From IMG/VR virus record IMGVR_UViG_3300032087_003621, positions 32,001-96,000 of that record: a DNA stretch of 64,000 nucleotides; one strand, 5' to 3'. Source of the DNA: a virus. Made by a program: the position numbers and the translations under genes. Shown piece by piece: positions 483 to 64,000 of this stretch. The stretch's first letter is position 1; every line of letters starts with the position of its first letter. Under the pieces are notes generated by a model that did no database searches, was not told the DNA's origin, and saw only the letters and a program-made list of their open reading frames with translations.

Positions 483-1129
483 TGAAATCATTTGTTATAA
501 CAATCAAATCAAACCCCAAGTCTGTAGAGGCCGCGTCTCGTTGTGTAAAGTCGATGCCTGAACACAATGTACAAATGTTCGATGCGATTACACCAAAAGA
601 CAATCCTGAAAAATTGTTTGAGGAAAAGGGCATCAACCCCGAAGGTTTTATTGAAAAGTATTCTTATCTTGAATCGTGTATGTCTGCCTTTCTTTCTCAC
701 CATACGCTATGGGAGAAGTGTGTACAGGATAATCAAGAATACCAAATCTTTGAACACGATGCTGTGGCGGTAAATAATGTCCCTTTGTTCATTAACTATG
801 ACAAAGTAATCTCTTTGGGTCAACCTAGTTATGGAAAGTATAATACCCCAATGCACATTGGTGCTGGACCACTAGTGTCGAAGAGATATTTTCCAGGCGC
901 CCATGCATACAGACTAAAACCTGCCGGTGCGAAGATTCTTATTGAGTCTGCAAAAACCAAAGGTGGCCCAACAGACGTTTACCTTAACTTGGTTCACTTT
1001 CCTTGGTTAGAGGAGTTCTATCCTTGGCCTGTTGTTGCAAAAGATTATTTCACAACCATTCAAAAAACCGAAGGGTGCTTAGCGAAACATAATTGGAAAG
1101 GTGGTCAGAATTATGAAATCGTTCGATAA
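482..1129 (+). CDS. Glycosyltransferase family 25-like
   Basis: FVITI..., FDAI, SAFLSHHTLWEKC, IFEHDA, GAHAYRLKPAGAKIL and PTDVYL match GT25 (Lex2/LgtB-type) motifs. Confidence 0.8.
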   Translation: MKSFVITIKSNPKSVEAASRCVKSMPEHNVQMFDAITPKDNPEKLFEEKGINPEGFIEKYSYLESCMSAFLSHHTLWEKCVQDNQEYQIFEHDAVAVNNVPLFINYDKVISLGQPSYGKYNTPMHIGAGPLVSKRYFPGAHAYRLKPAGAKILIESAKTKGGPTDVYLNLVHFPWLEEFYPWPVVAKDYFTTIQKTEGCLAKHNWKGGQNYEIVR

Positions 1130-1772
1130 GTGTTTCGTCACTGGATGTGACCAAAACACCGAATGGATGTTGCCATGGTTCATGAAGAACTACCTGAAAC
1201 ACAATAAAACTCCCATAGTGTTCGCTGACTTTGGAGTCAGTGATGCGACTCGTGCCTGGGCATATCAGATTGGTGGTTTCGCTGAAATGTTCCAAGTTGA
1301 TAAACAGAGAACGGGTGGGTGGTTCTATAAACCACAAGCGTTAAGAAAAACTAACGGAAAATATGTTTGCTGGTTAGATACAGATATTCATATCCTTGGT
1401 GATATGTCTGGCGTCTTCGATCATTTCGAACCTAACAAATTAGCTATGGTGGAAGATGTTGGGTGGAGTAAACGAAGAGGAGAAACATGGCACAACTCTG
1501 GTGTTGTAGGAATAATTGATAAACCAAACATCTTGACACAGTGGGAACAACAGTGTAAAATAAACCCTTCAGTCGGAGATCAGGAAGTTCTTCACGAAAT
1601 GGTTAGAGTTAGTCCTTTAGCGAGAATGTCAAACATTACTTCTTTACCTAATATATACAACTGGATGCGTCTTCAAATATTGGATGGACAAGACAATCCA
1701 AATAAACTGGCTATGCATTGGACGGGTTTTAGGGGTAAAGAACAGATTAGGAAGATAATGTATAATGAATAA
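1113..1772 (+). CDS. GT-A fold glycosyltransferase (GT8-like)
   Basis: WFYKP, WLDTD (DxD), HNSGVV, GDQEVL, YNW, MHWTG; start placed at ATG 1113. Confidence 0.75.
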   Translation: MKSFDKCFVTGCDQNTEWMLPWFMKNYLKHNKTPIVFADFGVSDATRAWAYQIGGFAEMFQVDKQRTGGWFYKPQALRKTNGKYVCWLDTDIHILGDMSGVFDHFEPNKLAMVEDVGWSKRRGETWHNSGVVGIIDKPNILTQWEQQCKINPSVGDQEVLHEMVRVSPLARMSNITSLPNIYNWMRLQILDGQDNPNKLAMHWTGFRGKEQIRKIMYNE

Positions 1773-2559
1773 GAATGACGTTGTTCACATTATTGGTAAC
1801 GGAGACAAAAGTGTTTTCTGGAATGAAATGAATGAACCAGAAGGTGTTCGTTTAGTCTGTAATATGCCACCGTTTCACGTCGAAGACGTATATGCAACCG
1901 TGATGGTTGATTTTAAAATGATGATGGCGTTGACCGAAGGTCACGTGAATCTGGATATGTACCGTTGGGTTTTAGGTAATCGTCCTAAAATATGGATGAA
2001 TGACCCTAGACAATCTTCCTTTTATTTGAAGTATGCACAAAACATTAGAGAATTTTATTTACATGTTCCTGAATATTGTGGACCAGTAGGTGAACCACAA
2101 TCCGCTACAAACTTTAACTGTGGTCACATGGCGACTCACTTCGCTGCGACTAAGTTCAAACCCAAAGAAATTCATATGTATGGTTTTGATACCATCATGG
2201 ATTTTAATATGAGATCTATTACCGATGTATATTTGAATAGTGACCGTTCAAATACAAATAATTATAGGCTGTTGAATAACTGGCGCCCAATATGGTATCA
2301 TTTATTTAAGGAGTTTGAAGGTCAGACTCGATTTATTCTTCATCACGATCATGATGAGATGAAAATTCCTCAAGGAAAAAATGTCGAAGTTGTGACACAC
2401 AAAACACGCAAACAAGAAAAACTTGATAAAAAAGAAGCCGTTAAGGCAATGGAATCACGAGAGATTCTAACTGAAGAACAACTATCAAAACTCAACCGTA
2501 AACAAAGAAGGGTGTACGAAGCTAAGTTGCGTAAAGGTAAACTCAAGGCACGAAAATAA
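1765..2559 (+). CDS. Putative glycosyltransferase-related protein (GT29/GT42/DUF115-like Rossmann fold)
   Basis: HIIGNG...CN and G.MA......KEIHMYGFD pattern; sits in the GT cluster; basic C-terminal tail. Confidence 0.45.
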   Translation: MNKNDVVHIIGNGDKSVFWNEMNEPEGVRLVCNMPPFHVEDVYATVMVDFKMMMALTEGHVNLDMYRWVLGNRPKIWMNDPRQSSFYLKYAQNIREFYLHVPEYCGPVGEPQSATNFNCGHMATHFAATKFKPKEIHMYGFDTIMDFNMRSITDVYLNSDRSNTNNYRLLNNWRPIWYHLFKEFEGQTRFILHHDHDEMKIPQGKNVEVVTHKTRKQEKLDKKEAVKAMESREILTEEQLSKLNRKQRRVYEAKLRKGKLKARK

Positions 2560-2562
2560 ATT

Positions 2563-62449: not shown

Positions 62450-62716
62450 ATGAAAATATCTTTAGAACAAGCCAGTGAAATACTTAATCGAAGTGCCGAT
62501 GAGGTTCTTTATATTGCGAACAATGAGAAACGGCTTCCGATTCAACTTGTTGGTGATGAAGAATTAAACTACAATGAAGATGGTACAATTTCATTTAATG
62601 AAAATGTTGAAACAACTGAACCAACATGGTGGTTCAATTTGGATGATGTGTTATCATTTAAAAAAGAAATGGACGAGGGTCTTGTAGGGGAAATTGAAAG
62701 TCATTTAAACGATTGA
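62450..62716 (+). CDS. Hypothetical acidic protein (HTH-like N-terminus)
   Basis: ISLEQASEILNRS.DEV; GAGGA RBS. Confidence 0.65.
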   Translation: MKISLEQASEILNRSADEVLYIANNEKRLPIQLVGDEELNYNEDGTISFNENVETTEPTWWFNLDDVLSFKKEMDEGLVGEIESHLND

Positions 62717-62723
62717 GCATATT

Positions 62724-63194
62724 ATGGAATGCGGTGAATGCACCGAATGTTGCGAATTACTTGAAGTAAAATCATTAAAAGCAACACAAGGTAATATTAT
62801 TGAAACAATTGTCATAGATTCTCCAGCAGGAGAAATGTGCGGTTATTGCGAGAAAAATGTGGGTTGTAAAGTGCACGAAGAACGTCCGAAAATATGTAGA
62901 GATTTTTTCTGTTCTTATGCACAACACGAAAAGGCGCCTTTGTTTATGCGACCAGATAAGTGTGGAATTATTTTTGAAAAAATTGATGAAGAAATGTTCA
63001 TAGGAACAGTGAGAGCAGAAGTCACAATAAGTGAACACGGTATGAATCAAATAAAAGTTTTTAATCAACAAGGATACAGTGTAGTTTTAAGAAAACACGA
63101 CACATTACAACCTATGTTATATCCCCGTGATGGTGTGGAAAAATTTGATCTTCTCAAAAAATTTCTAAAATTGGTAAAGATGAACAATGGCTAA
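62724..63194 (+). CDS. YkgJ-family CxxCxxCC metal/Fe-S cluster protein
   Basis: CGECTECC...C..C....GC.VHEERP.ICRDFFC...RPDKCG. Confidence 0.8.
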   Translation: MECGECTECCELLEVKSLKATQGNIIETIVIDSPAGEMCGYCEKNVGCKVHEERPKICRDFFCSYAQHEKAPLFMRPDKCGIIFEKIDEEMFIGTVRAEVTISEHGMNQIKVFNQQGYSVVLRKHDTLQPMLYPRDGVEKFDLLKKFLKLVKMNNG

Positions 63195-64000
63195 CACACC
63201 CACCACAGACTTAAACGATATCTACACCGATGGTGCTTGGGGCGAACCAGCCCGAGACACTGGTGGTTCGACGCCAATTGTTGATGCAGAAGCATACCTG
63301 CAAGGAAACGATTGTAGTTCCCAAGCGCTTCGGGCGAACAAATCTGGTGCGTGTGGAGCAATGTATCAAGCGGTTACTGACCCCGCTGGTTTCACAGATG
63401 GGACAGACGTTTTTCTCCTTTGGTGGTACTTTCTTTTTCCCAATGCACTTAACCCATTTAATGAAACCCAAGGTCTTGGTCAAGCGTTTCCAAGCCTGAA
63501 CGCGCCTGGCACTGAGGCTGGATATTTTTTAGGTATAGGTTCTGGTGATGGTAATTCTTATCATTGGGCAGTAGGTGGAAGAGATTACGGTACGTATCCA
63601 TATGGTGGTTGGACTAATATCGCAATTGACCCCTCAACGGCTTCGACTAAAGCGGCAATTCAAGAAGGTACGCCTACCGCTGGAACATATACCGCACTGA
63701 CCGCAACACCTAATCCTAGAATTGGTTTGAACCGTGGTCAGGGTCACGCAGTAGATGCGGTTCGTTGGGGAAGAGCGTCTATAACATTTACTGGTGGAGC
63801 ACCCGCTGGTACCTTCGATGATATGGCTACACAAAACGACTTGGAAGCTAACCGTTGGGGAATATTTCAAGAAACTGCGGCAGGATACCTTTATAAAGGA
63901 AGACTAGAACTAGGCACATCCGCGACATCGCTTCTATTTGAAGATTCGAATCAGAGTATCTTGATTGATGATACTCGATATTGTTATCCTGAATTTAATC
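63187..64000 (+). CDS. Putative structural protein, 3'-truncated by the window end
   Basis: MANTPTTDLNDIYTDG...YPYGGWTNIAIDP...; open frame absent from the ORF track because no stop falls in the window. Confidence 0.7.
   Translation, partial: MANTPTTDLNDIYTDGAWGEPARDTGGSTPIVDAEAYLQGNDCSSQALRANKSGACGAMYQAVTDPAGFTDGTDVFLLWWYFLFPNALNPFNETQGLGQAFPSLNAPGTEAGYFLGIGSGDGNSYHWAVGGRDYGTYPYGGWTNIAIDPSTASTKAAIQEGTPTAGTYTALTATPNPRIGLNRGQGHAVDAVRWGRASITFTGGAPAGTFDDMATQNDLEANRWGIFQETAAGYLYKGRLELGTSATSLLFEDSNQSILIDDTRYCYPEFN

Follow-up and report, generated by a model that had tools for sequence, protein, structure and literature searches.

Introduction

The closest described counterparts of the pattern reported here are the 5mYOX clusters, in which phage C5 cytosine methyltransferases (C5-MTs) are paired with TET dioxygenases. 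These clusters, known from marine viral metagenomes, mostly target GpC[C/T] with a post-replicative mark, their 5-hydroxymethylcytosine (5hmC) product is decorated further, and a role in restriction evasion has been proposed (PMC8256090). According to Burke et al. 2021, REBASE lists the GpC[C/T] specificity for no other C5-MT (PMC8256090). In S-B43, a T4-like marine cyanophage, the CmoA/CmoX/CmoY system relies on CmoX, a C5-MT homologue that carboxymethylates cytosine in a GC context, and the resulting 5-carboxymethylcytosine is a handle for glycine addition; for CmoX, the reported motif is GC rather than GCY (PMC12783734). A third system, Mom of phage Mu, is a protein of the GNAT fold that depends on Gly-tRNA to place N6-carbamoylmethyl-adenine, a sparse protective mark, at the three-base motif SAS (PDB 8bv8; PMC13219725). 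Here, we describe a 64,000-bp stretch of DNA (the window; positions 32001 to 96000) of the 146,377-bp IMG/VR virus record IMGVR_UViG_3300032087_003621, a distant T4-like myovirus, in which CCNGG and several other restriction targets are retained almost exclusively where they overlap the trinucleotide GCY (RGC on the opposite strand). We consider it likely that this conditional avoidance reflects a protective mark at GCY that the phage itself writes.

Classical palindrome avoidance in virulent phages is likewise a strong loss of short enzyme targets, and the genome studied here has lost GATC, CGCG, CCNGG, CTGCAG, and others. By contrast, however, part of the avoidance in this genome depends on one flanking base, and, therefore, the genome would report the motif of a modification as well as the targets of restriction. 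Our literature search did not find conditional site avoidance described as a genomic footprint of such systems. If our reading is correct, the restriction targets of a wild, uncultured phage and the motif of its protective mark can both be read from its genome sequence alone, and conditional site avoidance could serve as a cheap metagenome screen for DNA modifications.

Results and Discussion

Avoidance of CCNGG depends on the flanking base

A first-pass annotation of the window had noted about 60 CCNGG sites, nearly all with a 5′ G or a 3′ C, and a lone exception, TCCTGGG, near position 42665. Exact listing places the sole exception there and yields a pattern even stronger than the one claimed (Table 1). 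Across the whole genome, 134 of the 137 CCNGG sites conform to the rule (G at −1 or C at +1), and the three that do not are located at genome positions 11533, 74665, and 134364, with TCCWGGG in two of them. The annotation had proposed a comparison with codon-preserving shuffles, for which we used three kinds of synonymous-codon shuffle; all keep the protein and the codon usage, and the strictest also fixes each codon plus the next base. Genome-wide, the shuffles predict 110 to 144 nonconforming sites (standard deviation 7 to 9, minimum 90), against the 3 observed, and 64 to 75 conforming sites (maximum 97), against the 134 observed, so that the GCCNGG/CCNGGC class is in approximately 2-fold excess. 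Nonconforming sites are depleted for both cores (3 observed versus 85 expected for CCWGG and 0 versus 25 for CCSGG), and every flank class without the G or C is depleted alike. Among all 13^7 IUPAC 7-mers, none is more depleted relative to the shuffles than HCCNGGD (6 versus 221 both-strand counts, z = −14.5).

The rule is also visible in codon choice. Glycine is encoded overall by GGT in 58% and by GGC in 13% of cases, but GGC accounts for 64% of the glycine codons that follow proline (107 Pro-Gly pairs). The annotation had seen this use of GGC despite the dominance of GGT, and the observation holds unless the base before the proline codon is G. When the codon preceding Pro-Gly ends in G, glycine codon usage is ordinary (GGT, 21; GGA, 13; GGC, 11; GGG, 3), whereas after a codon ending in A, C, or T, GGC is used in 57 of 59 cases and other codons in 2. 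Some words of the GGC-G, GCT-G, and CAGC type are mildly overrepresented in the genome, as would be expected if codon-pair or mutational bias alone had produced the pattern. This explanation, to which we assign almost no probability, is refuted by the shuffles, the strictest of which still expects 110 nonconforming sites where 3 are observed, and by the switch of the glycine codon with the base that precedes proline; the lack of the pattern in close relatives also speaks against it. The phage encodes tRNA-Gly(GCC) and tRNA-Pro(UGG), which read the codons favored by rewriting to CCN-GGC; tRNA-Gly(GCC) is also of the co-substrate type of Mu Mom.

Two of these close relatives, L043 and L044 (77 to 78% identity in gp6), do not follow the CCNGG rule. 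Among their nonconforming sites, 22 have acquired a conforming flank in the phage genome, 14 have lost the core, and not one survives unchanged. These fates indicate that the purge of CCNGG is real, recent, and selective, and they account for the excess of GCCNGG/CCNGGC, because unshielded sites were converted and not only lost.

Spared sites of six kinds share a GCY trinucleotide

When the flanks of all short palindromes were scanned, CCNGG ranked first (P ~1e−55), and CTGCAG was also flagged (16 of 16 sites conforming). The same dependence on a 5′ G or 3′ C extends to CTCGAG, CCATGG, and CCTAGG, and at GCGC the sparing base is a Y after the site (Table 1). Genome-wide, observed versus shuffle-expected counts of unprotected sites are 0 versus 17.8 for CTGCAG, 0 versus 10.5 for CTCGAG, 0 versus 8.0 for CCATGG, 0 versus 3.0 for CCTAGG, and 2 versus 18.7 for GCGC. 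The corresponding counts of protected sites are 16 versus 17.4, 7 versus 5.3, 3 versus 3.1, 3 versus 0.8, and 107 versus 105. The depletion of YGCGCR was recovered independently by a 6-mer scan.

Common to all spared sites is a GCY (RGC) trinucleotide whose central C:G pair falls within the target. A motif-agnostic mask test of the phage genome gave an observed/expected ratio of 1.19 inside GCY and 0.03 outside it; with GCR, ACY, and CCY as control masks, no depleted motif was selected, and TCY selected a single motif, weakly (0.40 inside and 0.17 outside). GCY covers about 7% of cytosines, at 28 sites per kb. Other formulations of the motif were rejected. A CviJI-like RGCY does not fit, as the base 5′ of the G is mostly Y, and neither GCNGC nor plain GpC fits, as the internal GCA of CTGCAG gives no rescue and a 5′ G, which creates GCG, rescues neither CGCG nor CGTACG. 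GATC, GWCGWC, CGTACG, ACCGGT, GGTACC, and CGCG, none of which can overlap GCY, are purged regardless of flank. The GWCGWC group (GTCGAC, GACGTC, and GACGAC/GTCGTC) is reduced to 2 both-strand counts versus 107, or 1 copy versus about 53 expected; no enzyme with this degenerate specificity is known to us, and the purge may reflect either one new specificity or three enzymes.

TABLE 1 Coordinates of the site types, genes, and gene clusters discussed in the text
Feature	Coordinates	Strand	Description
CCNGG	window 893..63510		61 sites by exact listing, 60 of them GCCNGG on at least one strand
TCCTGGG	window 42665..42669		Sole exception in the window (exact listing)
CTGCAG	window 73, 8764, 10427, 24396, 35685, 56890, 61450 (73..61455)		7 of 7 with G before or C after
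CTCGAG	window 21214, 25580, 37179, 48154 (21214..48159)		4 of 4 with G before or C after
CCATGG	window 1173, 4259, 36807 (1173..36812)		3 of 3 with G before
CCTAGG	window 30569, 42605, 47791 (30569..47796)		3 of 3 with G before
GCGC	window 1..64000		48 sites, all GCGCY or RGCGC; no YGCGCR in the window
GWCGWC	window 40271..40276		Single copy in the genome; type cannot overlap GCY
DruA-like protein	genome 105160-106290	minus	376 aa, PF14236; 9 kb beyond the window
Mom-family protein	genome 136791-137600 (L009:10414-11223)		PF25680, E 1.1e-55, positions 1-198 of 202
Tandem DruA-like paralogues of G004	L172:10223-12687		Two, 33% identical to the query
tRNA-Gly(GCC) and tRNA-Pro(UGG)	genome ~114250-114325 and 131776-131854 (L008:6250-6325, L009:5399-5477)		
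QueF-like protein	genome 13793-14221 (L005)		PF14489, 4e-18; beside a NifU-like gene and DUF7207
Auxiliary genes	genome 126000-131600 (L013)		Ribosomal protein L33, peroxiredoxin, SHMT, cytochrome c, cupin, staphylococcal-nuclease-like
Sugar-nucleotide/glycosyltransferase cluster	genome 23000-33200; window 1-3228		Two GT8, GT25 (window 482-1129), HAD plus nucleotidyltransferase, epimerase, sulfotransferase-like, IRX15-like methyltransferase

As an alternative to modification, the annotation had considered a nuclease with HCCNGGD specificity. It would resemble PfoI/Ecl18kI within the CCGG family but with relaxed recognition of the outer base pair. Such a nuclease would suit the depletion, which is best described by this one palindromic 7-mer; one noncognate half-site would naturally spare a site, and PfoI, SexAI, and PasI recognize 7 bp around a CCNGG or CCWGG core. 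Yet the same flank rule applies at CTGCAG, CTCGAG, CCATGG, and CCTAGG, in its Y-after form at GCGC, and, in other phages, at CCGG, CTTAAG, CCTCC, CCTGA, and CTCTTC, and many unrelated enzymes would all need an identical flank discrimination. To our knowledge, no type II enzyme of the CCGG family has an H...D flank specificity. We regard the HCCNGGD nuclease as very improbable and read the flank rule as a property of the shield, not of a nuclease; CCGG-family type II enzymes such as Ecl18kI/SsoII (CCNGG) and PfoI (TCCNGGA) are the likely kind of enzyme restricting the main target.

In the explanation that we propose, the central C:G pair of each GCY/RGC is probably modified after replication, as a sparse mark with a three-base motif like that of Mu Mom, and host restriction enzymes would select against any target copy without a marked base pair. 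The enzymes so implied would recognize CCNGG (or CCWGG plus CCSGG), CTGCAG, CTCGAG, CCATGG, CCTAGG, and GCGC. Copies with a G before the first C, or a GCGC followed by Y, would be shielded and kept, and many unshielded CCNGG sites appear to have been turned into shielded ones by synonymous change, chiefly of Pro-Gly from CCN-GGD to CCN-GGC; such conversion would explain the 2-fold excess of GCCNGG/CCNGGC. The annotation had suggested CCNGG-directed restriction with rescue by an overlapping modification in a GC/GCC context. The principle of rescue is favored by the five other site types, by the match to GpC[C/T] (PMC8256090), and by phage Melnitz, discussed below; its particulars change, as the motif is GCY and not only GCC, and CCNGG is one of several targets.

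The known GCY-writing enzymes are present in Melnitz and absent here

The OM43 phage Melnitz encodes a C5-MT (PF00145, 7e−55) followed directly by a Tet_JBP gene. All 72 CCNGG sites of Melnitz are protected, and none is unprotected (55 expected); protected and unprotected counts are 15 and 0 for CCGG and 14 and 0 for CTGCAG. Its footprint comprises nine motifs in all, including CTTAAG, CCTCC, CCTGA, CCGAG, and CCAGTC. That a carrier of a C5-MT/TET pair has an identical footprint supports our view that a GCY shield underlies the footprint.

The phage studied here has neither enzyme. The annotation had pointed to C5 and N4 methyltransferase genes in the rest of the genome as a possible source of the mark, and none is present: a profile search of the genome gave no PF00145, PF01555, PF12851 (E ≤ 1), or PF01702 match, and tblastn searches of the genome with the Melnitz methyltransferase and TET sequences gave no real match. 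As a positive control, the C5-MT search recovered the Melnitz enzyme at 2e−56. Weak tblastn matches at 116 kb, which might have been a hidden or split C5-MT, belong to the clamp loader gp62 and to a coiled-coil protein, and the gene that follows the DNA polymerase encodes a primase of 313 aa. An N4/N6 methyltransferase was dismissed as the writer for lack of a PF01555 match, and a deazaguanine route was dismissed because no TGT/DpdA match was found in the genome and the QueF-like gene (Table 1) stands alone. CmoX, as a C5-MT homologue, has no counterpart here either. Because there is no C5-MT and no TET/JBP gene, the chemistry in this phage, unlike that of the C5-MT/TET clusters, is probably neither 5-methylcytosine nor 5hmC.

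CheckV estimates the record to be 85% complete and calls it linear. A metagenome scaffold from ENA bridges both record ends, with about 160 bp missing, which makes the record a complete, circularly permuted genome short of these ~160 bp and rules out a missing 15% of the genome.

The footprint could also be a relic of an ancestral C5-MT/TET pair that was lost, with the GCY sites now unprotected. Pairs of the Melnitz type occur in the same phage family, and gene content turns over fast, with 92 of 189 open reading frames lacking a homologue in four relatives. Several observations make a relic very unlikely. The CCNGG rule arose after the lineage had separated from L043 and L044, it is near perfect (three exceptions), and the protected class is enriched; moreover, near-identical DNA is present in metagenomes from eight studies (seawater, marine, estuary, and biofilm), and a lineage without protection would be thriving with 134 exposed sites.

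A DruA-like protein is the best candidate for the writer

The genome holds two GNAT-type candidates, both outside the window: a DruA-like protein and a Mom-family protein (Table 1). The DruA-like protein matches PF14236 (DUF4338) over residues 74 to 198 only (43.4 bits, with a cutoff of 27; E = 3.1e−11) and the PADLOC DruA profile at 7.8e−7, and it has 6,700 relatives at E ≤ 1e−5. An AlphaFold2 model built from a 39-sequence alignment reached a pLDDT of 93.5 (32 for a single-sequence model). Foldseek matched the model to GNATs at probability 1.0, and in VIA-align the top match was Mu Mom (8bv8; Z = 10.1 over 186 residues); other GNATs scored Z of 9 to 9.8 over about 140 to 150 residues, so that they tie with Mom within 1 Z, and the Mom alignment is the longest. 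The modeled structure thus assigns the DruA-like protein to the GNAT fold, with 9% identity to Mom in the structural alignment and no detectable sequence similarity. One GenBank record labels a DruA-like homologue "methylcarbamoylase mom." A literature search did not find DruA described as a GNAT.

In the phage genome, the DruA-like gene lies by itself, between the genes for the major capsid protein and the tail, and no Druantia operon context (DruB to DruE) was found around it; in cyanophages, the gene lies beside the clamp loader. In phages of the G002 type, it is located about 3.5 kb downstream of Mom, and the genome G004 carries two tandem DruA-like paralogues.

Sparing at GCY appears to follow the DruA-like gene across the T4-like phages compared

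DruA-like genes occur in only 31 records of the phage collection, which belong to a subset of Synechococcus T4-like phages and to the pelagiphages HTVC008M and Mosig. No C5-MT is present in any of the ten cyanophages examined, and G002 lacks the enzyme too. Among the carriers, exemption of sites inside GCY is clean in the phage itself (observed/expected 1.19 inside and 0.03 outside) and is also present in G002 (complete, 172 kb; 1.13 and 0.08) and in S-SSM7 (1.03 and 0.04; CCAGG, 31 inside and 1 outside). Observed versus expected CCGG counts are 28 versus 32 inside and 0 versus 62 outside in S-PRM1, and 37 versus 39 inside and 0 versus 59 outside in S-CAM9. G003, which has only a 28%-identical DruA-like paralogue, is also exempt (0.94 inside and 0.07 outside), and S-B68, a carrier, gave no testable motif result. 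In contrast, four phages without the gene show no exemption: S-PM2 (CCGG, 0 versus 18 inside and 0 versus 43 outside), S-CAM3 (0.06), S-CAM1 (0.03), and S-BM3 (CCGG, 0 and 0). Across the compared T4-like phages, the exemption thus appears to track the DruA-like gene and neither Mom nor the host.

The host would matter if the GCY mark came from an orphan methyltransferase common to all hosts, a possibility made attractive by the lack of a recognizable DNA methyltransferase in the phage; the host of Melnitz also encodes a type II methylase (PMC9004378). However, S-PRM1 and S-BM3, both recorded on Synechococcus WH7803, differ completely in exemption (28 protected and 0 unprotected CCGG sites versus 0 and 0), which argues against a host-written mark. 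S-PM2, which is also known to infect WH7803 (its record names no host), shows no exemption either. The OM43 podovirus MEP401, in which there is no testable motif, purges GGCC, which contains GCC. On this evidence, we judge a host-written mark to be unlikely.

The Mom-family protein deserves consideration as the GCY writer in its own right. It is a strong member of its family (PF25680), matches Mu Mom (8bv8) at E = 8e−20, and is carried by the phage itself, by Melnitz, and by G002 to G004; alongside this true Mom-family gene, the phage has tRNA-Gly(GCC). Among the essential residues of Mu Mom, H58, Y59, S124, D149, and Y159 are kept, and R111 and R151 are replaced by K and I, respectively. Both replacements are invariant in 13 marine homologues and, as a sequence feature of this marine subfamily, suggest an altered chemistry. 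Its action would have to differ from that of Mu Mom, which modifies adenine at SAS: sites that contain SAS are not spared (GTCGAC, 0 versus 29; GACGAC, 1 versus 31; unflanked CTGCAG, 0 versus 18), and, because CCSGG contains no adenine, the footprint requires a mark on the C:G pair. A SAS adenine shield is therefore excluded. The lack of a Mom-family homologue in S-PRM1, S-CAM9, and S-T4 shows that Mom is not required, as S-PRM1 and S-CAM9 are cleanly exempt. Furthermore, the presence of Mom does not track the CCNGG rule among IMG/VR loci, and loci with 89%-identical Mom genes lack the rule, although this may only mean that there is no CCNGG pressure on them. We consider Mom improbable as the writer of the GCY mark. 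The Mom-family gene is flanked by a GMP-reductase/IMPDH-like gene and a DUF932 gene.

Unrelated lineages in the gp6 tree also show the footprint, and close relatives lack its CCNGG part, a distribution consistent with a shield that is conserved and restriction pressures that vary with the host. The writer is probably phage-encoded, and we tentatively name the DruA-like GNAT of Mom-like fold as the best candidate in this phage, at a confidence just short of even. Somewhat more speculatively, we conjecture that Mom-fold DruA/DUF4338 GNATs may write a novel, nonmethyl GCY mark in many marine T4-like phages (cyanophages, pelagiphage-like phages, and the present lineage), as a second, nonhomologous route beside C5-MT/TET, and that, by extension, DruA of type I Druantia may modify DNA. 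The phage lacks the only known GCY-writing enzymes, and the footprint follows a very abundant, uncharacterized family of Mom-like GNATs. This association suggests that some of the most common phages of the ocean may use a new chemistry of DNA modification, which can be tested, and it offers a possible role for DruA within the Druantia defense system; cultured phages with and without the DruA-like gene exist for such tests.

Several points weigh against a phage-written GCY mark and against the DruA-like protein as its writer. The modification is deduced wholly from sequence statistics, as are the restriction enzymes of the host. The association with the writer comprises about a dozen related genomes, uncorrected for kinship. 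The carrier S-T4 is only partially exempt, and HTVC008M and Mosig, also carriers, are ambiguous: early signs of exemption lost their specificity when control masks scored too. S-SM2, whose DruA-like protein has 44% identity, purges CTAG even next to G. In C48C1, 78% of the CCWGG sites conform even though the genome lacks DruA-like, Mom, and C5-MT genes. We also know of no precedent for a GNAT that modifies cytosine or guanine in DNA, as Mom, the sole known DNA-modifying GNAT, targets adenine.

Two of these genomes show further particulars. In C48C1 (OQ984149.1), CCSGG is wholly absent, and the only relevant match is a weak one to a 2OG-oxygenase. In S-SSM7, CCGG is purged even next to G, whereas CCWGG and CTGCAG are spared there (the motif observations for S-SSM7 and S-SM2 cover the first 80 kb of each). 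The purge of G-flanked CCGG in S-SSM7 and of G-flanked CTAG in S-SM2 implies that the shield does not block every enzyme or that the motifs differ.

Relatives and gene content of the phage

The record encodes gp32, gp6, gp23, UvsW, a clamp loader, and a DNA polymerase. Its nearest cultured kin in gp6 (32 to 41% identity) are Kyanoviridae Phage C48C1, Melnitz, and the pelagiphages Mosig and HTVC008M, and a near-identity DNA search of the phage collection gave no match to the phage. A search of genome contigs with the phage SHMT, which might have hinted at the host, gave no match. This SHMT belongs to a group of auxiliary genes that is unusual for a T4-like phage (Table 1). The genome also contains a cluster of sugar-nucleotide and glycosyltransferase genes that extends into the window, with further cytidylyltransferase, epimerase, and GT25 genes elsewhere; the products of the cluster could decorate virions or a DNA base.

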